Program-made: the position numbers and the translations under genes
Assembly (NCBI GenBank): GCA_948466335.1
Contig: CAOKAE010000002.1
Coordinates: 92,029-156,028, forward strand
From: an uncultured Coriobacteriia bacterium
GTDB lineage: Bacteria; Actinomycetota; Coriobacteriia; Coriobacteriales; QAMH01
DNA length: 64,000 nucleotides
Direction of reading: 5' to 3'
In this document: positions 3,971 through 62,434 of the stretch, piece after piece
Position numbering within the stretch: the stretch's first letter is position 1
Layout: the number at the start of each line of letters is the position of its first letter
The notes under the pieces: model-generated
Database searches by the model: none
Told to the model about the DNA's origin: nothing
The model's input: only the letters and a program-made list of their open reading frames with translations

Positions 3971-4666
3971 ATGGCTTCCATTCAACGCTATGGCGAGCGC
4001 ACTCCTCACGAGGCGGCAGCCCATGTGTGCCCCCGACGAACCAGCCTCGCGGAATCGCGCCGGCTTACGGGTACCCCCGGCGTAATAGCAAGCGCCGCCC
4101 GCAAGCTCTTCGAACGCGACGGCGTACGTGCCACCACGGTCATCGCCATCGCGCGCGAGGCAAACGTGACGCGTGAGCTGGTGTACTACCACTTCGGAAA
4201 CAAGAACGGCGTCATCGAAGCCGTTCTCGATGACTACGTTGAGGACCTCGTGGAAAGCGTCATCGCCTGGAACGAGGCGCGCGTATTCGGAGATATGGCG
4301 GGATCATTGAAGAGGTGCATAGCCGTCTTCCGCTATGCGCTCTACGATGCAGAGGGCAAGCCGCGTCCTATCATTCGCGTACTGGAAGAGCTCGGCGTGC
4401 GCGACGCATTCGATGTGCGCGCCACGCGCGAAACGGCCGATTGCTTGAACGACCACATCGCTTCCGAATATGCCGCCTACCACCAAATCGAAATCGAGCT
4501 CGTCCACGAGATGTTCTGCGTGATCATCTTCGGGTTGGTGGGGCTGGTGAAGATGAAGCCGACTATCAGCGACGAGGACCTCATGAAGATCGTCGAGCAA
4601 ACGCTGCGACTCGACATGACGCGCCCCGTCGCGTCCGTTGAGGACACTGCGCCTGCTGGGGACTAG
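3971..4666 (+). CDS. TetR/AcrR family transcriptional regulator
   Basis: HTH region AARKLFERDGVRATTVIAIAREANVTRELVYYHFGNKNG. The SD AAAGGAG lies 6 nt upstream of ATG 3971. Confidence 0.88.
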   Translation: MASIQRYGERTPHEAAAHVCPRRTSLAESRRLTGTPGVIASAARKLFERDGVRATTVIAIAREANVTRELVYYHFGNKNGVIEAVLDDYVEDLVESVIAWNEARVFGDMAGSLKRCIAVFRYALYDAEGKPRPIIRVLEELGVRDAFDVRATRETADCLNDHIASEYAAYHQIEIELVHEMFCVIIFGLVGLVKMKPTISDEDLMKIVEQTLRLDMTRPVASVEDTAPAGD

Positions 4667-4677
4667 GCGAAGAAAAC

Positions 4678-4706
4678 GGGACAAACGTCTCCGGGACGCT
4701 TGTCTC
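4678..4706. repeat. GAGACA/TGTCTC hairpin repeat, copy A
   Basis: GGGACAAACGTC-TCCGG-GACGCTTGTCTC, a 12-position stem with one A.C mismatch. It shares an exact 16-mer, ACGTCTCCGGGACGCT, with 62414-62429. It begins 12 nt after the TetR stop. Confidence 0.6.
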
Positions 4707-4751
4707 ATAAGGTGCGGGTGCCGGGTGAAGGTGTATGGACGAAACAGGTGC

Positions 4752-4793
4752 CAAAAAACGCAAAGGGGGCCGCGGCGACAAGCCACGGCCCCC
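4752..4793 (-). terminator. Rho-independent terminator of the esterase gene
   Basis: On the minus strand, GGGGGCCG-N13-CGGCCCCC is followed by TTTGCGTTTTTTGG. It lies 30 nt after the stop at 4824. Confidence 0.75.
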
Positions 4794-4823
4794 TCGCTTG
4801 GGGAGGAAGACGGCAACTGGCGC

Positions 4824-7439
4824 TTACTTGTTCGCTGCCACGATACCGTCCATGAACTCGTCGATGATCTTGTTCACGCGATCGGTGTTGAACTGCCAAC
4901 CGCCATGGGCAGCGCCCTCGATCGAGTAACGCTCGGAAGCCGCGCCCAGTTCCTTGGAGCGCTTGTACAGCTCCATGGTGGAGACGGGCGACACGGACAT
5001 GTCCGCGGTGCCATGGAAGCACAGGAACGCCGGGTCATCCTCGTCCAGGTAGGTGAAGGGGCTGAACTTGGCCGGCTTGTCCAGGTTGCTGTAGACCGAG
5101 CCGCCCGGGTTCTGGCCAAAGGCCGTGCCGTTGATCAGGAGAGCCTCGGTGTTGGACTCCGAATCATGCACGCCATAGTTGGACAGGCCCGCACCGATGA
5201 TGGTGAGGTCGGAAACGCCGAAGAGGTCGATGACGCCCTGGACCGCGGAGCTCTGGTCGAGGTTGTCGCCCACGTCGAACTTGATGTTGTCATCGAACTG
5301 GGTGGTGTTGCCCAGAACGCCCATCATGACCGCCATGTAACCGCCCGCAGAGGAACCGCTCGCGATGATGCAGTTGGGGTCGATGTTGAAGGTGCCCGCA
5401 TGGGCGCGCAGCCACCTCACGCCGGCCTTGGCATCCTGCAGAGGTCCGGGGTTGGTCGTGTTGGGAATGACGCGAATCTCGGCAACCACCACGACATAGC
5501 CACGCTCAGCATAGCGCAGGTACGACATGGCATCCGGATTGGACTTGTTGAAGCCACCGCAGGCAGCGACGTAGAGCACCGGACGCGGACCATCATCCCT
5601 GCCCTTGGAGGGCGTGATGATGTTCATCTTCAGGGTCTTGTTGGTACCCTTCTCGTTAATCGTCTTGTAGGAGATGTCGCGCGTCTGGCTCAGGGTCCAG
5701 TGGTTGGGATCGGTGGCAACCTGCTCGGCTCCGGCCGTGGCCTCAGCGAGCGTGGGCAGGTCCTCGGCCGCATAGGCCTTCGTGCCCTTGCTCAGGTCGA
5801 CGGTGGGCGCAACGTCGGAAACCGGCGTATTCGCGTAGGTGTTCAGGAACTTGAGGGCGCGCTCCATGGAAACGCCCTGCTCGAACTGCTTGCCGCCATG
5901 GCCGGCGCCCTCGATGACGTAGCGCTCGGTGTGTACGCCAGCGGCATCCAGGCGCTTCTGGAGCATCTTGGACGCGACGGGAGACACGAGCGTGTCGGCC
6001 GTGCCGTGGAACATGAGGAACGGCACCGTGTTGCCGTCGATGTAGCTCAGCGGGCTTGCCGCGGAGACCTTGGCGATCATGGAATCATCGAACACGCCGA
6101 CGCCCTTCTGGGCGGCAGCGGCGCCGTTGAGCAGGAGCGCCTCGGTGGTGGCAGCCGACTTGTGGCTGTCCTGAAGCTCCTGGGACAGACCCGCGCCGAT
6201 GATGGTGAGGTCAGAAACGCCGTAGAAGTCGATAACCGCGTTGACGGCAGAGGACTGGTCGAGATTCGCTCCCACGTCGAGCTTGGTCGGAACGACGTCG
6301 CCTTGCATGTTGGGATAGGAGATCTCTTTCACGTTGCTCGTGACACCAATCATGGTCGCGTAATAGCCACCAGAGGAGTTACCGGCAGCGGCGACCTTGT
6401 TCGGGTCAAACTTGTACTTGGTCGCCTCGTTCTTCGCGCCGGCCTTGAGGAAGCGGATGGCCGCCTTGATGTCCTGGAGCGGGGCCGGGAAGTTCGACAC
6501 CGCGCTCGTGCGATGCTGCACGGAGGCAACGACATAACCGCCCTTGGCCAGCGCAAGGCGCGTCTCGAGGTTGCTGGCGGCATCGGAGTTGGTGAATCCG
6601 CCTCCGTTAATCCAGACGACGAGCGGCGTCTCGCCGTTCTTCGCCGTGGACGGCGTCAGCAGCTCGATCTGCAGGTCGACGGGCTTGCCGTAGTCGCTGG
6701 TGTGGAGATACGGGATGGTCTCCTGGCTCACGGTGACGGCGGTCGACTTGTCGGCATCGGTGAGATTGATCACGTTATAGGCAGTCGCCTCGTCGAGTGT
6801 GGCGAGACCCGGCGTGTCCTGACCGATGCACGCCTTGCTCACATCGACCGTACCCGTGTTGAACGGGTCGACCGGCACGGGGACGTCGCTGGCGCCACGT
6901 ACGGCATACCAACCGATGCCCTCGTCGTTCCAACCGATGCTCACGAGCCTGCTATGCTCGTCGAGGCTGGTGGTGTAGTTGTGGGAACCGGCGTTGTTCG
7001 TTGCCGCATTGGGGTCCACGTTGGGGTTGAACTGCCTGTAGAGGGGCACACGCTCCTGGTCGTCGGAATAGAAGCTGATGCCCTCGTCGGTCCAGCCGGC
7101 CTGCACGAGGCTGTCGCGCTCGAACTCGGACATCGTGTAGTGATGGTCCGTGCCCGAATACACGCGATACACGGGCGTCTCGGACGTGGTCGGGGCATGC
7201 CAGCCGATGCCCTCGTAGTTCCAGCCGGCGGCGACGGTGGCATCCTTCTCGACGTCGCTTGCCGTGTAGAAGTGCTCACCGGAATTGGGATTGTACAGAC
7301 GATGCATCGCCTGCGTCTCCTCTGCGGCGTTATCAGCAAACGCCAGTCCCGACGGCACCATGAACACCGCGCACAAAGACGTTGCCATGAAGCAGGCCAA
7401 TGCCTTTCGCGCATACTCAAGTGCTTTAGGTTTACCCAT
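4824..7439 (-). CDS. Secreted protein: signal peptide, 3 YRLYNPNSGEHFYT-type repeats, and two tandem alpha/beta-hydrolase (esterase/lipase) domains
   Basis: Starts MGKPKALEY...GLAFA/DN (Sec-type signal) with SD GGAGA upstream. Three repeats resemble DUF5648-type repeats. Two GxSxG nucleophile motifs are present: GNSSGGYYA (about 6361-6390) and GSSAGGYMA (about 5331-5360). Both halves share NLDQSSAV..VID.(F/Y)GVSDLTIIGAGLS and FHGTAD..VSPV. Confidence 0.85.
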   Translation of the reverse strand: MGKPKALEYARKALACFMATSLCAVFMVPSGLAFADNAAEETQAMHRLYNPNSGEHFYTASDVEKDATVAAGWNYEGIGWHAPTTSETPVYRVYSGTDHHYTMSEFERDSLVQAGWTDEGISFYSDDQERVPLYRQFNPNVDPNAATNNAGSHNYTTSLDEHSRLVSIGWNDEGIGWYAVRGASDVPVPVDPFNTGTVDVSKACIGQDTPGLATLDEATAYNVINLTDADKSTAVTVSQETIPYLHTSDYGKPVDLQIELLTPSTAKNGETPLVVWINGGGFTNSDAASNLETRLALAKGGYVVASVQHRTSAVSNFPAPLQDIKAAIRFLKAGAKNEATKYKFDPNKVAAAGNSSGGYYATMIGVTSNVKEISYPNMQGDVVPTKLDVGANLDQSSAVNAVIDFYGVSDLTIIGAGLSQELQDSHKSAATTEALLLNGAAAAQKGVGVFDDSMIAKVSAASPLSYIDGNTVPFLMFHGTADTLVSPVASKMLQKRLDAAGVHTERYVIEGAGHGGKQFEQGVSMERALKFLNTYANTPVSDVAPTVDLSKGTKAYAAEDLPTLAEATAGAEQVATDPNHWTLSQTRDISYKTINEKGTNKTLKMNIITPSKGRDDGPRPVLYVAACGGFNKSNPDAMSYLRYAERGYVVVVAEIRVIPNTTNPGPLQDAKAGVRWLRAHAGTFNIDPNCIIASGSSAGGYMAVMMGVLGNTTQFDDNIKFDVGDNLDQSSAVQGVIDLFGVSDLTIIGAGLSNYGVHDSESNTEALLINGTAFGQNPGGSVYSNLDKPAKFSPFTYLDEDDPAFLCFHGTADMSVSPVSTMELYKRSKELGAASERYSIEGAAHGGWQFNTDRVNKIIDEFMDGIVAANK

Positions 7440-9195: not shown

Positions 9196-9271
9196 TGGTG
9201 GAGATGAAGGGATTCGAACCCTCGGCCCCCACGTTGCGAACGTGATGCTCTCCCAGCTGAGCTACATCCCC
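9196..9271 (-). tRNA. tRNA-Ala (anticodon CGC)
   Basis: 76 nt, GGGGATGTAGCTCAGCTGGGAGAGCATCACGTTCGCAACGTGGGGGCCGAGGGTTCGAATCCCTTCATCTCCACCA. The acceptor stem has the G3:U70 alanine identity pair. The anticodon loop is TTCGCAA and the T-loop is TTCGAAT. CCA is encoded. Confidence 0.95.
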
Positions 9272-9339: not shown

Positions 9340-10305
9340 TTGCCCTGCCTTTATGCGATAATAGCCCCCATGCAAACGAGCAATAACATATTCCGCATAC
9401 TCATCATCGCCTGCGTCGTTCTCTTCATCGGAGCAATCGCCCAGCAGTTCTACATCTCGCATGTCGAGTCGAGCTATGCCAAATCGGGCGACGAGCTCAA
9501 GCAGGCCGAAGCCGACGTTGCCGCGGCAACCGAGCAAAACGAATCGCTCGAGCAACAGCGGACCGACACCTACATTGCCTGGCGAAACGCGCAGGGCCGC
9601 CTTTCGCTCTTTGGCGATAAGGGTGGCAAGGTGGCCTACCTCACCTTCGACGACGGCCCCTGCGACGCGCTCACGCCCAAGAACCTCGAAATCCTCAAGC
9701 AGAAGGGCGCCGTGGCGACGTGGTTCTGCCTGGCAAACGACGAGCTCTACACCTATCTCAACCTCGACCTCTGCAAGGACATCGAAAAGCAGGGTTCGGT
9801 CGTCGGCATTCATGACTGGGACCAGGACGACTCGTACAGCTACTACAAGGGCGGCGTCGACAACTACTTCACGAGCGACTTCGATAAGGCCAAGGAGAAG
9901 CTCGAAGCCGTCGTTGGCCATGAGATCAAGATCACGCGCTTTGCGGGCGGAAGCCTCACGATCGGCTACTACGACCCTGCCATTGGCAAGGCGCTACCCC
10001 GTGCCATGCTCGAGCGCGGCTACCAGTACTTCGACTGGAACGTGCTTGCCGGCGACAGCGAGCCCTCGCAGTTCGTGAACGGGTCGACCCCCAAGGACCG
10101 CATCGTGAGCAACGTGCTGAGCGAGGCGGAGTTCTTCGCGAAGACGGATTCTCCCATCTGCGTGCTCATGCACGACAACCCCGGTAAGAACACGACGACC
10201 GAGGCGCTTCCCGAAATCATCGACGGCCTGCGCGCCCTGGGATACGAGTTCAAGACGCTCGATTTCGATTCCCCTGGTTTCTATCAGGTGGTGATCACCG
10301 AATGA
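9340..10305 (+). CDS. Membrane-anchored polysaccharide deacetylase (NodB homology) with coiled-coil linker
   Basis: N-terminal TM (IFRILIIACVVLFIGAIA), then a coiled segment, then NodB motifs (VAYLTFDDGP, VLMHDNP). The start is uncertain: TTG 9340 or ATG 9370. Confidence 0.8.
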   Translation: MPCLYAIIAPMQTSNNIFRILIIACVVLFIGAIAQQFYISHVESSYAKSGDELKQAEADVAAATEQNESLEQQRTDTYIAWRNAQGRLSLFGDKGGKVAYLTFDDGPCDALTPKNLEILKQKGAVATWFCLANDELYTYLNLDLCKDIEKQGSVVGIHDWDQDDSYSYYKGGVDNYFTSDFDKAKEKLEAVVGHEIKITRFAGGSLTIGYYDPAIGKALPRAMLERGYQYFDWNVLAGDSEPSQFVNGSTPKDRIVSNVLSEAEFFAKTDSPICVLMHDNPGKNTTTEALPEIIDGLRALGYEFKTLDFDSPGFYQVVITE

Positions 10306-11150
10306 CATACGAGCGCGGACAATATGACGATGGATTCGAGCGCGAGAGGCGCCCCCGTCGCGATGTTCCCGAACGGAGCGAACGCCGTACTGGCAGCGGA
10401 TCGAATCGTTACTCCCGTTCGTCGGAACGCTACGCCCGTCACGCCTCGGCGCAACGCGACGAAAGGCGTCCCGGCAGGTCAGAAGGCCGCCCGAATCGTC
10501 AACGCCGCGACGACGCGCCCCGCGCGCGCCAACGCGACGAGCAGGGCTCTCGTCATGATTCCCCACGCCCCAGCCAACGTCCGAGTTCACGCACCCGACA
10601 GCGTGATGACATGCGCAACGAGAGGCGCGATCATGACACCATGCGCCCGCGTGACACGCGCTCGAGCCGACGGGGCTACGATGACGCACGAGATGAACAT
10701 CGCCGCGACAGGCACCCAAATCGGCAACGCGAGGGACGCGCCGAGCAGCAACGCGACTCCCGCAATGGGCAACATGCCATCGCACGGGCCGGCCAACGCA
10801 ACATCGCCCAGGCAAATCAGTACAGCAGGGACCGCTACGTAAGCCAGCCCGACCAGCAGTTTGGCGCATCCGCGAACCGGCAGGGCTACGACAAGGGCCG
10901 ACGCGTCAAGCCCGTCGACCCGCGCATGATCCTCGGGCTCGGCGTCGTTGCCGTCATCCTGCTTGCCGTCATCATCATCCGCTTCGTCGCCTTTGGTGGC
11001 ATCGCAAGCGAATACGGTGCCGCCAAGGCCGCCATCGACCAGCAACAAGCACAGCTCACCGAGCTTCAGACCTCAAACGGCGAGCTTCAGGCCGAGATGG
11101 ACTCCATGCAGGGCCTCATCGAGCGCTACAACAACTCGGGCAAGAAGTGA
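10302..11150 (+). CDS. Hypothetical bitopic protein: ~190-aa Arg/Asp/Glu/Gln-rich disordered N-terminus, one TM, short C-terminal coiled coil (DivIC/FtsB-like architecture)
   Basis: An ATGA overlap with the upstream deacetylase gene suggests translational coupling. TM segment ILGLGVVAVILLAVIIIRFVAF. C-terminal heptad-like segment AAIDQQQAQLTELQTSNGELQAEMDSMQGLI. Confidence 0.65.
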   Translation: MTYERGQYDDGFERERRPRRDVPERSERRTGSGSNRYSRSSERYARHASAQRDERRPGRSEGRPNRQRRDDAPRARQRDEQGSRHDSPRPSQRPSSRTRQRDDMRNERRDHDTMRPRDTRSSRRGYDDARDEHRRDRHPNRQREGRAEQQRDSRNGQHAIARAGQRNIAQANQYSRDRYVSQPDQQFGASANRQGYDKGRRVKPVDPRMILGLGVVAVILLAVIIIRFVAFGGIASEYGAAKAAIDQQQAQLTELQTSNGELQAEMDSMQGLIERYNNSGKK

Positions 11151-11154
11151 CTCG

Positions 11155-11312
11155 CATATGCCCGATTGCGGGCTGGCTCTCACACCCGGTTCACCACGGA
11201 CGCAATGCCGCGAAAGAACTCGCGTGCACAGATCGCACGCTCAAACACCTTTCGTCAAACCCGCATTGCGCCCATGGCAAACCTGTTCGAGATGCCCGCA
11301 ATCGGGCATATG
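11155..11312 (+). repeat. Imperfect-palindrome intergenic element, family copy 1 (MITE/ERIC-like or structured RNA)
   Basis: 19/19-bp arms CATATGCCCGATTGCGGGC / GCCCGCAATCGGGCATATG. Flanking direct repeat ACTCG at 11150-54 and 11313-17. The interior is colinear with 51666-51784 and with rc(57317-57433). Confidence 0.75.
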
Positions 11313-11369
11313 ACTCGTTGGGGAATTAATAAGAGTAACGGGATAAAACTCGCCCGGCAACTTGTTGTC

Positions 11370-11807
11370 TCATTTATGGTAGGGCTCGCCGCGCATGATC
11401 TTGAAGGCGCGGTATATCTGCTCAAGCAAGACGACGCGGGCAAGATTGTGCGGCAACGTAATCTTGCCGAATGAGAGCGTCTCGTCGGCACGGTCGTAGA
11501 CCGCCTGCGTCACGCCATCCGAGCCGCCAATGCAAAACGCGATGTCGCTCGTGCCGTGGGTCATGAGCTCGTCGAGACGCTGCGCGATCCCCTCGCTCGA
11601 TCGCTGCTCTCCCTTGATGGCGAGCAAGATAAGATGCGCGTCTCCGGCCACGCGGATGATCTCATCGCTCTCGAAATCGATGCCCTTGTCGGGAATTTCC
11701 ACGATACGCAGCTTGGTATAACCGCCAAGACGCTTGGCGTACTCCGCCGCCGCATCCTTCCAGAAGCGTTCCTTGAGCTTGCCCACGGCTATGACCGTTA
11801 TTCCCAT
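11370..11807 (-). CDS. rlmH: 23S rRNA (pseudouridine1915-N3)-methyltransferase
   Basis: 145 aa, SPOUT family. Begins MGITVIAVGKLKERFWKDAAAEYAKRL and ends LPHNLARVVLLEQIYRAFKIMRGEPYHK. Confidence 0.92.
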   Translation of the reverse strand: MGITVIAVGKLKERFWKDAAAEYAKRLGGYTKLRIVEIPDKGIDFESDEIIRVAGDAHLILLAIKGEQRSSEGIAQRLDELMTHGTSDIAFCIGGSDGVTQAVYDRADETLSFGKITLPHNLARVVLLEQIYRAFKIMRGEPYHK

Positions 11808-51527: not shown

Positions 51528-51647
51528 ATTCCCGCTGCGTTACCCCTCCAGGTATTGTCTGCAGATTCGTTGTTGCATTGTAATGCAAGCTGATAGCGAG
51601 CGCCAATCGCTTCACAACATGTGCACGGAGAGTTAAGAGGGCGTTCA

Positions 51648-51802
51648 GATGAGCGAATTGCAGACTTGCTCTTGCACCCGAGTTACGCTTCGCTCGATGC
51701 CGCTGCGGAACTCGCGCGCAAAAAACGCGCGCTCAGACAGTCCTCGCAAGGTCGCATCGAGCTCAGCGCAACTCTGCGCGAGATGTCTGCAATTTGCTCA
51801 TC
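51648..51802 (+). repeat. Imperfect-palindrome intergenic element, family copy 3
   Basis: Arms GATGAGCGAATTGCAGAC / GTCTGCAATTTGCTCATC (17 Watson-Crick pairs plus 1 G-T). The interior is colinear with copy 1 (TTGCTCTTGCACCCG, GATGCCGC, GGAACTCGCG, GCTCAGACA, CGAGAT). It begins 11 nt after the rsmA stop. Confidence 0.7.
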
Positions 51803-56404: not shown

Positions 56405-57241
56405 CTACATGCCAAGGATGAGGTCGTAAAGCCTGTTCTTCGGGAGGCCGAGTTCGCGGGAGAGCTTCTTGGCAAGCGCCGACTTGGACGCGCCGGCGGC
56501 AAGCTCGGCTTGGATGCGCTCGTGCAAGGCCGGGTCATCGAGACTTGCGGCTTGCTGCGCACGAGCATCCGGCAGAGCGATGACGAGCACGATCTCGCCC
56601 TTAATCGCATCACGCGCAGCGAGGTTATCCGCAAGCTCGTTGGCGGGCAGACGCAGTACCTCTTCGTGCAGCTTCGTGAGCTCGCGACACAGCGCGACTG
56701 GTCGCTCGCCATAGGCCTGCGCGATGCTCTCGACCGCAGCAACGACGCGATGCGGTGACTCGTAGAAGATGAGCGCAGCATCGAGCGCGGCCAGCGATTC
56801 CAAAAGCTTGATGCGCTCGACCTCCTTGCGCGGCAAGAAGCCGCCGAAGTAGAAGGCGTTATGCTTAAAGCCGGAAGTAACGAGCGCAGTGGTCACGGCG
56901 CAGGGGCCGGGCAGCACGTTGACAGTCACACCGGCATCGCGGGCCGCATCGACAAGCACGATACCGGGATCGCTGATGCCGGGCATGCCGGCATCGGAGC
57001 AGAAGGCGATGGACTTGCCATCGCGCATGCGAGCAACAAGAGCGGCGCTCTTGGATGCAATGACGTTCTCGTCACAACGCTCGAGACGGGCCTGGATGCC
57101 GAAGTGCGCGAGCAGCTTGCCGGTGACACGCGTGTCCTCGGCGCAAACGACGTCGGCCTGCTCGAGCGCGTCGAGCGCACGGGCGGTCATGTCGCCGAGA
57201 TTACCGATGGGCGTCGGCACTATGGTCAGCTTGCCAGTCAT
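56405..57241 (-). CDS. rsmI: 16S rRNA (cytidine1402-2'-O)-methyltransferase
   Basis: MTGKLTIVPTPIGNLGDMTARALDAL..AEDTR. Starts at ATG 57241; GTG 57250 is an alternative. Confidence 0.92.
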   Translation of the reverse strand: MTGKLTIVPTPIGNLGDMTARALDALEQADVVCAEDTRVTGKLLAHFGIQARLERCDENVIASKSAALVARMRDGKSIAFCSDAGMPGISDPGIVLVDAARDAGVTVNVLPGPCAVTTALVTSGFKHNAFYFGGFLPRKEVERIKLLESLAALDAALIFYESPHRVVAAVESIAQAYGERPVALCRELTKLHEEVLRLPANELADNLAARDAIKGEIVLVIALPDARAQQAASLDDPALHERIQAELAAGASKSALAKKLSRELGLPKNRLYDLILGM

Positions 57242-57296
57242 TGCATCCACCCTACCGGAGCAAATGTGAAGTCACTTCATTCCCGTTCACCTGCTA

Positions 57297-57453
57297 TGCA
57301 ATAAGCAGTTTTGGGCATCTTGAGCAGGCTCGTCATTTTCGCAATACGGGTTTGCGAAAGGTGTCTGAGCGAGCCAAAGGCGAGCGAGTTCTTTCGCGGT
57401 ATTGAGAAAATGGCGAGCCGGGTGCGAAAGCCAGCCCGAAAATGCTTATTGCA
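57297..57453 (-). repeat. Imperfect-palindrome intergenic element, family copy 2
   Basis: Arms 57297-57316 / 57434-57453 pair at 18/20 positions (TGCAATAAGCAGTTTTGGGC / GCCCGAAAATGCTTATTGCA). The reverse-complemented interior is colinear with copy 1 (TGGCTTTCGCACCCGG, CCGCGAAAGAACTCGC, ACACCTTTCGCAAACCCG.ATTGCG, CAAGAT). The right arm contains the gap TAA stop. Confidence 0.75.
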
Positions 57454-58450
57454 TCAAAAACTTCGCCAGGTCGATGCAACGAGCGGAGTAGCCCATCTCG
57501 TTGTCGTACCAGGAGATGCACTTCACGAAGTTGCCCTCGCCGTCGAGCACCTTGGTGAGCTTGCTGTCGAAGATCGAGGAATGCGTGTCGCCGATGACAT
57601 CGCAGCTCACGATGGGGTCGACGCAGTACTCGAGGATGCCCTTCATCGGGCCCTCGGCGGCGGCCTTCATAGCGGCGTTGATCTCGTCGGCAGTGACGTT
57701 CTTCTCGAGCTCGACCGTGAGGTCGACCATCGAGCCCGTCGGCGTGGGAACGCGGGTCGCGAAGCCGTCAAGCTTGCCGTTGAGCTCGGGGAGCACGAGG
57801 CCGACGGCCTTGGCCGCGCCCGTGGAGGTGGGAATCATGGAAAGGGCCGCGGCACGCGAGCGACGGAAGTCCTTGTGGTGCACGTCGAGGATCTTCTGGT
57901 CGTTGGTGTAGGCATGGATGGTGTTCATGAGGCCGCGCTTGATGCCGAAGTTGTCGTTGAGGACCTTGGCGAACGGCGCGAGGCAGTTGGTCGTGCACGA
58001 GGCGTTGGAGACGATGTTCATCGTGGCCGGGTCGTAGATATCCTGGTTGACGCCCATGACGATAGTGGCGTCCACGTCGGTGCCCGGAGCGGAGATGACG
58101 ACCTTCTTGGCGCCGTTGTCGAGATGCACCTGGCAGGCCTCGCCGGTCTTGAGGCGACCCGTGGACTCGATGACGACCTCCGCGCCGACGGAAGCCCAGT
58201 CGAGCTCCTTGGGCTCGCGCGTCTGGAACGCCTTGACCTCGTGGCCCTCGACGACGAGCGCGCCTTCCTTGGCGTAGCACTCCTCGAAGACACGGCCCTG
58301 GCTGGAATCGTACTTGGTAAGGTACGCCGCGCACTCGAGATCACTCGGATTGTTGATGGCGACGACCTCTACATCGGGATCGAGCTCTGCGAGACGAAAG
58401 ACCAGACGGCCGATGCGACCAAAACCATTGATGCCGATTTTGAGAGACAT
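57446..58450 (-). CDS. gap: Type I glyceraldehyde-3-phosphate dehydrogenase
   Basis: Starts at ATG 58450 (MSLKIGINGFGRIGR). Active-site SNASCTTNCLAP. Confidence 0.97.
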   Translation of the reverse strand: MSLKIGINGFGRIGRLVFRLAELDPDVEVVAINNPSDLECAAYLTKYDSSQGRVFEECYAKEGALVVEGHEVKAFQTREPKELDWASVGAEVVIESTGRLKTGEACQVHLDNGAKKVVISAPGTDVDATIVMGVNQDIYDPATMNIVSNASCTTNCLAPFAKVLNDNFGIKRGLMNTIHAYTNDQKILDVHHKDFRRSRAAALSMIPTSTGAAKAVGLVLPELNGKLDGFATRVPTPTGSMVDLTVELEKNVTADEINAAMKAAAEGPMKGILEYCVDPIVSCDVIGDTHSSIFDSKLTKVLDGEGNFVKCISWYDNEMGYSARCIDLAKFLMQ

Positions 58451-62342: not shown

Positions 62343-62434
62343 TGAGACAGCGTCTCAGGCATCTTGTCTCAAAAAATGGCCAAAACTGACGAAATGCCGA
62401 TGTTTTGAGACAACGTCTCCGGGACGCTGTCTCA
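62343..62434. repeat. GAGACA/TGTCTC hairpin repeats, copies B and C, with possible alternative long-range pairing
   Basis: B: TGAGACA-N15-TGTCTCA (62343-71). C: GAGACAACGTC-TCCGG-GACGCTGTCTC (62407-33), which overlaps the LysR stop. 62343-54 is also complementary to 62423-34 (12 bp). Confidence 0.6.

Follow-up and report, generated by a model that had tools for sequence, protein, structure and literature searches.

The gap gene of an uncultured Coriobacteriia bacterium ends within a long imperfect palindrome, and this locus raises the question of what the palindrome is, how it came to overlap the end of a gene, and what keeps its arms complementary. In the first-pass annotation of the 64,000-nt stretch of DNA that was analyzed as a whole (the window), it had been listed as the second copy of a palindrome family with unrelated but self-complementary outer arms, and it had been regarded as an RNA or DNA structure under selection instead of a mobile element.

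The Hairpin between gap and rsmI

An inverted-repeat search delimits copy 2 as a 159-nt imperfect palindrome at window positions 57296-57454, which is made up of two nested inverted repeats (Table 1). The palindrome, as annotated, is real. A single hairpin is predicted for the RNA of the - strand (-66 kcal/mol, z -5.5) and of the + strand (-82 kcal/mol, z -6.9), and with DNA parameters the sequence folds at -38 kcal/mol (z -6.3); in each of the three calculations, 0 of 200 shuffles were as good. Copy 2 is present in identical form in six further metagenome contigs of the same species. In a scan of the window against Rfam 15, the sole match at gathering score was a tRNA, with none at the copies, while scans in E-value mode gave only chance matches or matches to generic miRNA hairpins that score far below gathering. 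An origin as a small RNA gene transcribed on its own, or as a palindrome that arose by chance, would account for the stable fold, but a scan for promoter-like sites at copy 2 found none, the element extends over the 3' end of the gap ORF, and neither the shuffling result nor the existence of about 95 related copies (see below) agrees with such an origin, which is hardly credible.

Table 1: Features of the hairpin family and of the gap locus in the window
Feature	Position	Strand	Remarks
Family copy 1	11155..11312	+	Between convergent genes 10302-11150 (+) and rlmH 11370-11807 (-)
Family copy 3	51648..51802	+	After ksgA/rsmA (- strand); orientation versus transcription opposite to the others
rsmI (TP_methylase)	56405..57241	-	Downstream of gap; PF00590
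Displaced native last codon and stop, GCA TAG	57294..57299	-	Now 3' of the element, unused
Outer stem, rsmI-side arm	57296..57316		21 nt, 90% complementary to 57434-57454; 57296-57299 native, part of the displaced GCATAG
Inserted element, copy 2	57300..57451	-	152 nt, 5'-CAATAAGCA...CTGCTTATT-3' on the - strand
Internal-loop block CTGCTCAAGAT	57317..57327	-	3' side; CTGCTC conserved in alignments A2 and A3
Inner stem, arm	57327..57347		21 nt, 90% complementary to 57399-57419
Apical domain, CGCGAAAGAACTCGC-(short hairpin)-GCTCAGACACCTTTCGC	57354..57398	-	Most conserved part of the family (A2, A3)
Inner stem, partner arm	57399..57419		Pairs with 57327-57347
Internal-loop block GCACCCG	57419..57425	-	5' side; invariant in alignments A2 and A3
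Outer stem, gap-side arm	57434..57454		Holds the new CAA-TAA of gap; 57452-57454 is the native Met333 codon
Present gap stop TAA	57446..57448	-	Element-supplied; from translation
gap, type I GAPDH, 334 aa	57446..58450	-	PF00044, PF02800

A Family of Structure-Defined Repeats in Coriobacteriia

A scan for inverted repeats about 120 nt apart identified three family copies in the window, namely copy 2, the previously annotated copy 1 and, in addition to the annotated list, copy 3. Once copy 2 is reverse-complemented, they align end to end. The blocks CACCCG, GAACTCGC, and CGCTCARACA are invariant among them and the stems differ; the outer arms (CATATGCCCG, ATGCAATAAG, and GATGAGCGAA) are unrelated, each pairing with its own partner, which bears out the earlier description with a third case.

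A pattern based on the conserved blocks, including GCACCCG, retrieved 93 stretches from species-representative genomes. Nearly all of them lie in MAGs that carry the label Coriobacteriia, Coriobacteriales, Eggerthellaceae, or Atopobiaceae; a few come from evidently contaminated bins, and one of the latter (L027) encodes proteins 58-83% identical to those of the window. By nhmmer, about 95 distinct copies from about 15 uncultured Coriobacteriia MAGs were collected. A family HMM built from 37 copies of other genomes, with the window copies excluded, recovers the latter at E values of 1e-36, 3e-20 (copy 2), and 3e-19 and has no match in the window outside the three copies. The family was thus encountered only in uncultured Coriobacteriia of one clade, mostly from the gut, with three copies within the 64 kb of the window. 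No description of it emerged when the literature was searched by organism, keyword, and motif sequence; the family is undescribed, and no named family claims it. A repeat family is thereby added to a clade of uncultured gut bacteria that has been little studied.

Every copy forms a single hairpin of, in the median, about 169 nt (range 152-210 nt) and about 55 bp. Read on the + strand of copy 1 from the outside inward, an outer stem (18-48 bp) leads to an asymmetric internal loop whose 5' side carries GCACCCG and whose 3' side carries CTGCTC; an inner stem of about 20 bp follows, and the hairpin is capped by an apical domain of the form GAACTCGC...GCTCARACA, in which the variants (C)TGCGGAACTCGC or CGAAAGAACTCGC are followed by a short variable hairpin and by GCTCARACAGTCCTCGC or GCTCARACACCTTTCG. 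Conserved sequence amounts to about 60 nt of internal motifs, which are not inverted copies of one another, and the stems are free. The termini are unconserved and differ in essentially every copy, that is, in every non-orthologous one, so that the identical termini which would have marked the window copies as outliers were not encountered genome-wide. Because the stems differ between copies yet stay complementary, it is the shape together with a few internal motifs that defines the family. For the apical domain, a likeness to a K-turn, to domain 5 of group II introns, or to the hairpin ribozyme was weighed by visual inspection and discarded, since the geometries do not fit.

Insertion of Copy 2 into the End of gap

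The origin of copy 2 can be read from close relatives of the locus. Three GAPDH relatives (P0001, P0003, and P0010; 95%, 87%, and 85% identical, with 334 residues each) end in ...AKF(L/M)(M/V)(A/E), and the GAPDH of the window ends in ...AKFLMQ. The contigs of these relatives share the gene order obg, proB, gap, rsmI, metG; their gap-rsmI spacers measure 135, 73, and 69 nt, respectively, versus 205 nt in the window, and do not contain the element. Deletion of exactly the 152 inserted nucleotides restores ...TTG ATG GCA TAG CAGG..., in base-for-base agreement with the 3' end of gap and the beginning of the spacer in the relatives (L180-L186). Since the native GCA TAG end is restored in this way, the last codon and the stop of gap (CAA TAA) are supplied by the first six bases of the element. 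This shows that copy 2 entered gap by insertion, separating the final Ala codon from the Met333 codon before it. The palindrome had been annotated as starting inside the gap TAA; the stop does lie within one arm, but the element does more than start there, the last codon being its own as well. Nor does it fill the spacer, as had been stated, for 58 nt are left between the element and rsmI. At the base of the hairpin, the last three pairs (ATG/CAT) belong to the native flanks, which chance to be complementary. Through the insertion, gap, an essential glycolytic gene, received a new last codon and a new stop and would have had its terminator displaced.

At the reconstructed empty site, ATG|GCATAG, the target duplication is 0 bp, and family-wide, palindromic artefacts aside, flanking repeats are not above the null. 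The annotation had argued against a classical MITE, and rightly so. A MITE of IS origin that moves by cut and paste would also be small, non-coding, palindromic, and present in many copies (about 95) with presence/absence polymorphism, but neither the reconstructed site nor the family at large shows a target-site duplication, no shared terminal repeats occur, the termini differ in each non-orthologous copy and stay at background similarity even where the interiors are 100% identical, and no transposase-bearing parent was seen. Such an origin is very improbable. The other half of that argument did not stand: the pairing is indeed maintained (see below), but mobility is not thereby excluded, since the empty sites and the exact reconstruction demonstrate an insertion.

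Two routes by which a hairpin could have been assembled in place were rejected. Insertion of the core into the loop of a pre-existing terminator hairpin does not agree with the 12-nt spacer of L021 (see below) and with ATG|GCATAG, neither of which holds such a hairpin; the whole hairpin is the inserted unit. An outer stem formed by inverted duplication of the target flank is contradicted by the lack of either arm at the empty sites, only 3 bp being flank-derived.

When metagenomes were scanned with the GAPDH protein, only relatives of at most 62% identity were obtained, none of them informative on empty sites.

Position at Stop Codons and Candidate Role at mRNA 3' Ends

The genomic context of the copies was assigned with a simple, home-made GC-frame gene caller that had been checked on the window. 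In 34 of 49 distances the base of the hairpin lies from -9 to +23 nt relative to the stop codon, which is overlapped in 14 of the 49; between convergent genes, the element nearly fills the spacer. Divergent, that is, promoter-side, contexts make up 5 of 81. Orientation relative to the mRNA is split 18 versus 15, and 19 to 21 in tandem-gene contexts. Copy 2 had been noted to have the same sense to its upstream gene as copy 1; this does not hold as a rule of the family, given this split and the reversed copy 3.

The hairpins are not followed by a U-tract in either direction. The 12 nt downstream contain a mean of 3.1 T, equal to the opposite direction, and at least 6 T are found downstream in just 2 of 33 copies. 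Canonical intrinsic termination is, therefore, not expected; of the features of an intrinsic terminator, the copies have the stop-proximal position and lack the U-tract.

Candidate terminators are seen at the gap locus of relatives. The gap-rsmI spacer of L183 holds a terminator-like hairpin of 14 pairs with the T-rich tail CTTATTCTTG (3 sites versus 0.1 expected in the scan), and in that of L180 the arrangement GGGGAG-N7-CTCCCC-TTCTTGTTTT is recognizable by eye, for which the strict scan made no call. In the gap-rsmI spacer of the window, element included, the terminator scan found none. It is plausible, judging from these spacers, that copy 2 is a 3'-end hairpin which replaced the terminator of gap. 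Within the gap mRNA, the hairpin may form a 3'-end barrier, either in transcription termination or in protection from exonucleases; it would have taken over from the candidate-terminator hairpin of the relatives, whereupon the native gap terminator could have become dispensable.

Maintenance of Pairing in Variable Stems

The complementarity of the stems was assessed in several ways. RNAalifold, applied to 40 copies that MAFFT had aligned on sequence alone, predicts 49 pairs, 39 of which show at least one compensated double change. With a hand-specified structure of 58 pairs, standard pairing is found in 87.6% of the cells, compared with 65.7% when partners are shuffled and 28-48% when they are slid by 1-3 columns. 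Double changes occur in 46 of the 58 pairs, and in the inner stem (helix 3) in 19 of 20, with 507 doubly changed cells versus 162 expected, and 0 of 500 shuffles matched any covariation measure.

The same is seen between orthologues. In 20 orthologous pairs across genomes, 56 fully compensated double changes stand against 63 one-sided ones (36 to a wobble-type pair, 10 repairs, and 17 breaks), plus 5 double breaks. If the arms changed independently, about 7 double-changed pairs, about 2 of them still paired, would be expected by a rough estimate. Some orthologous pairs have 7-10 compensated and at most two one-sided changes; in L035/L071 there are nine and none. The claim that pairing itself is maintained is, thus, very strongly supported by covariation on the collected copies: overwhelmingly, the complementarity of the family's stems is kept and their sequence is free. 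The family provides a clean natural case of stems that evolve freely and remain complementary.

Is Pairing Maintained at the Level of RNA or DNA?

According to one view, each copy would be a cis-acting structured RNA, that is, a regulatory or terminator hairpin of a 3'-UTR whose pairing is selected on the RNA and whose module is reused. The very strong covariation, the position close behind stop codons, the loss of the native terminator at the gap locus, and the long retention of many sites across genera (see below) are in line with it, as is the finding that in 56 of 59 copies the strand complementary to the + strand of copy 1 has the more stable fold, by 5-25 kcal/mol (mean 11). This asymmetry is real, but it was traced wholly to the conserved apical domain (116 versus 19 mismatches by region) and was dropped as evidence for RNA.

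The variable stems give a different picture. By strand, G·T and A·C mismatches number 45 versus 35 in the outer and 7 versus 23 in the inner stem. G·U-type mismatches in mRNA sense and antisense number 30 versus 19 in the outer and 9 versus 8 in the inner stem. Wobble types constitute 48% of the outer-stem mismatches, about what transitions alone would give. The variable stems behave as strand-symmetric Watson-Crick complements, free of a G·U strand bias as judged from about 80 mismatches and with hairpin ends set by an RNA-energy fold, which favours the DNA level. An RNA that is structured on one strand and tolerates G·U would not be expected to show such symmetry. Because the asymmetric motifs occur in both orientations to transcription, a single RNA-level reading cannot hold at all sites. 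Together with the missing U-tract, the lack of any Rfam match, and the nature of copy 2 as an insertion, this makes selection of the copies as RNA unlikely, and the part of the earlier claim that referred specifically to RNA is not sustained.

Since the stems are strand-symmetric and the copies lie in either orientation, the upkeep of pairing can be mutational and does not require selection. Template switching within quasipalindromes is documented to create and to repair stems (PMC8794818). Within the palindrome, it would copy one arm onto the other and thereby keep the arms complementary; it accounts for compensated changes of several bases at once and for near-perfect arms, with no need of selection step by step, and it predicts the strand-symmetric complementarity that is observed. 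Being a mutational process and no class of element, however, it leaves the asymmetric loops and the spread of the copies unexplained. Correction of one arm by the other would erase conserved asymmetric unpaired motifs, so that these must be under purifying selection for some function; such selection would retain the conserved loops and the hairpin itself. On the whole, the data favour a complementarity that would be kept at the DNA level and/or by selection for the hairpin, but not as a strand-specific RNA. As the covariation is strand-symmetric and lies in a mobile DNA element, template-switch correction has to be taken as a serious alternative to selection on RNA. Stem covariation alone is no proof of a functional RNA, which is a warning for covariation-based discovery of noncoding RNAs in metagenomes.

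Retention, Polymorphism, and Probable Modular Exchange

Many sites are orthologous across MAGs, with flanks that are 80-99% identical and the element kept, and some are conserved across genera. Copy 3 has an orthologue in L096 (3284-3440), and copy 1 has one in L187, a genome whose RlmH is 96% identical. The outer stem of copy 1 is retained in this orthologue apart from three changes, each of them fully compensated (CATATG..GCGGGC to CATGTG..GAAGGC); in the inner stem about 7 of 15 pairs differ, all of them compensated, and by eye about 4 of 60 positions of the coding flank differ. Other sites are polymorphic. At one of them, L037 carries a copy and the convergent stop codons of L021 are separated by a spacer of 12 nt; in the reverse case, L021 carries a copy and L037 has unrelated sequence.

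Non-orthologous copies, often of the same genome, can have inner arms that are 100% identical and near-identical cores, with outer arms at background similarity; the cores of L038 and L026, for example, differ at 2 of 105 positions. Core pairs of at least 90% identity make up 6.6% within genomes (paralogs) versus 1.3% between genomes. From this pattern, the interior is probably exchanged between copies, with the conserved blocks on either side of it serving as anchors; the process could be gene conversion or a switch of template from copy to copy, and exchange anchored in this way would likewise keep the stems paired. Recent spread of copies with newly generated outer stems could also have produced the pattern. 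Within 64 kb of this genome, no donor copy sharing the outer stem of copy 2 was seen.

Two further possibilities were discarded. Outer arms copied from elsewhere are not indicated, as a BLAST search with 58 arms against all fetched DNA matched only partner arms and orthologues. The pair L010 and L033 had looked like in-place turnover of the outer stem and is better explained by allelic replacement that includes the first ~25 codons of the neighbour gene.

Mobilization of the Element

The element is mobile or formerly mobile DNA of an unusual, structure-defined type. As an explanation of the locus as a whole, we consider it reasonably probable that copy 2 is an insertion of a non-autonomous hairpin repeat whose pairing is kept at the DNA level, which serves as a 3'-end barrier, and which is moved by a putative enzyme recognizing its loops. 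The conserved loops would most likely be the recognition determinants for this putative enzyme, with the element being moved as folded DNA. Unconserved termini and the variable length of the outer stem make it hard to see how an enzyme would define the ends.

The genes beside the copies are ordinary housekeeping genes. A gene between two inverted copies in L018 was considered as a transposase, but it encodes an oxidoreductase. Using phmmer and tblastn with sequences of IS200 TnpA and E. coli RAYT as queries, no IS200- or RAYT-like gene was found in the window and in the 93 element-bearing tiles (640 kb).

Among described elements, REPINs come closest, which are REP doublets that form non-autonomous hairpin repeats and whose spacers carry compensatory changes (Bertels & Rainey 2011, PMC3116915). 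They resemble the present family in being extragenic one-hairpin repeats of about 100-170 nt with compensatory changes and without the terminal-repeat and target-duplication signature of DDE transposons. By analogy, a single-copy HUH transposase (RAYT or IS200-type) encoded elsewhere could move the single-stranded DNA hairpin by reading its conserved loops, and the stable fold as ssDNA, the extragenic location, the absence of target duplications and terminal repeats, and the compensatory changes that keep the hairpin, as for REPIN spacers, would suit such a mechanism. However, the REP 16-mers of REPINs are conserved at both ends and the middle is variable, which is the opposite of what is found here. 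REPINs are accompanied by RAYT, and RAYT genes are normally REP-flanked, but the window and the 93 tiles yielded no RAYT or IS200 homologue; their hosts are Proteobacteria or cyanobacteria, not Coriobacteriia; and with the direction of flanking genes serving as a rough proxy of the replication strand, the copies show no orientation bias. A REPIN-like mobilization is, therefore, doubtful.

Comparison with Other Hairpin Repeats

Repeats of the ERIC/IRU, Correia, and BOX/RUP type are imperfect palindromes of about 100-170 bp that lie in transcribed intergenic regions in either orientation and can be mRNA stabilizers, processing sites, or terminators. The Coriobacteriia family is similar to them in size, location, and likely effect on the mRNA, but those repeats are recognizable by sequence throughout, and Correia elements and MITEs have terminal inverted repeats and target duplications. 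Stop-proximal REP elements of E. coli and the high-GC "I-shaped" terminators of actinobacteria are short, of about 35 nt or with a simple stem. They share with the present copies a hairpin about 0-20 nt from the stop, the lack of a U-tract, and a plausible 3'-end role; here, in contrast, the hairpin is a composite of 150-200 nt with conserved loops and evidence of insertion.

For the recognition of an element that is defined by structure, the closest analogy is the attC site of integrons. This site is a folded recombination substrate in which unpaired or extrahelical bases are the determinants and the stem is otherwise free but complementary. Integron attC sites, 57-141 nt in length, are bounded by conserved R''/R' core sites and form cassette arrays beside an integrase, whereas the copies of the family are dispersed singly among housekeeping genes, with no arrays, no adjoining integrase, no GTT core, and unconserved termini. 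The Coriobacteriia repeat is filed under intergenic hairpin repeats or miniature mobile DNA, outside all named families.

It is conceivable, though only as a tentative possibility, that the family represents mobile DNA of a new, structure-defined class, the ends of which would not be specified by sequence, with a putative enzyme reading the unpaired loops in the manner of attC, a preference for insertion at ORF ends, where the element can provide the stop codon, and swapping of interior modules. Should the loops turn out to be recognized by an enzyme of transposition or recombination, the element would be new in kind, being defined by its shape and not by its ends.

A wider lead came from viral sequence collections. 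A relative of the element in the IMG/VR contig L193 had no match in plasmid, E. coli, and phage collections, and a spurious ORF in it, translated and used as a protein query, matched nothing. The apical motif CTGCGGAACTCGC...GCTCAGACAGTCCTCGC with flanking GCGCTGCTC blocks is present in L193 and in a second IMG/VR contig, L194, both of 61-62% GC. One of these motif sites adjoins a gene for a CI/LexA-like repressor and murB, on a contig that looks betaproteobacterial. With the apical motif occurring in betaproteobacterium-like viral contigs, the Coriobacteriia family could be one branch of a much wider, unrecognized superfamily.

Shared outer stems and a probable allelic replacement

Apart from one tandem duplicate, the sole case of outer stems common to two copies of the hairpin-shaped repeat is the pair on L018, one of the DNA stretches compared with the window, where the outer arms are 92% identical and a single gene, encoding an aldo/keto-reductase-like protein (4068-5108), is enclosed by the copies (see table). 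The two copies on a further such stretch, L041, have the same left flank; element and flank appear to have been duplicated locally as one tandem unit. In the compared stretches L010 (600-1110) and L033 (1930-2250), 96-99% identity is found in the flanks, while the spacer and the outer stem of the element are replaced, as are the initial ~25 codons of the membrane protein encoded downstream, with ~170 extra nt in L010. This difference looks like recombination leading to allelic replacement.

Coordinates of element copies, apical motifs and other features
Feature	Sequence	Position	Strand	Remark
Element copy	L018	3848-4057	+	near-identical to next, inverted
Element copy	L018	5172-5325	-
Element copy	L041	5171-5341		identical to next, tandem, 194 nt apart
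Element copy	L041	5365-5535
Apical motif	L193	9008-9108
Apical motif	L194	121-163
Apical motif	L194	268-310
Promoter-like site	window	51577-51606	-	TTGGCG-18-TACAAT
tRNA gene	window	9199-9271	-	Rfam gathering-score match

Flanks of copy 1

Copy 1 is bordered on either side by the direct repeat ACTCG (window 11150-11154 and 11313-11317). This repeat could be due to chance, since copy 2 lacks a duplication and the family-wide duplication test was negative. An empty site for copy 1 was not found among the relatives; the element is present in the closest of them, and in more distant ones the neighbouring gene is different.

Distribution of the element and its apical motif

The element also occurs on contigs L027, L030, L053, L075 and L094, from bins named Agathobacter rectalis or Acutalibacteraceae. 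The proteins of L027 are 58-83% identical to window proteins, and all five are probably mis-binned Coriobacteriia contigs.

The apical motif of the family, CTGCGGAACTCGC-hairpin-GCTCAGACAGTCCTCGC, is present in two IMG/VR contigs of 61-62% GC, L193 and L194; in one of these, which is betaproteobacterial in appearance, it adjoins a CI/LexA-like repressor and murB. In both, GCGCTGCTC blocks border the motif, whereas the Coriobacteriia family has GCACCCG at this place. The motif may thus point to a superfamily extending past Coriobacteriia.

Other features of the window

The promoter-like site lies upstream of a glycosyltransferase gene (start 51527) and directly follows copy 3 on the downstream side. 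The tRNA gene is the window's sole Rfam match at the gathering score. An inverted repeat with 40-nt arms, rich in GAGACAG/CTGTCTC, lies at 62343-62434, and a GAGACAG...CTGTCTC hairpin is found within the gap-rsmI spacer of a relative (L180, about 2565-2610); the two may be members of a second hairpin repeat family, unrelated to the element. A perfect palindrome, AATTTCGTGTACACGGTGTACACGAAA, with arms of 27 nt and a spacer of 8 nt, is located at 631-692.
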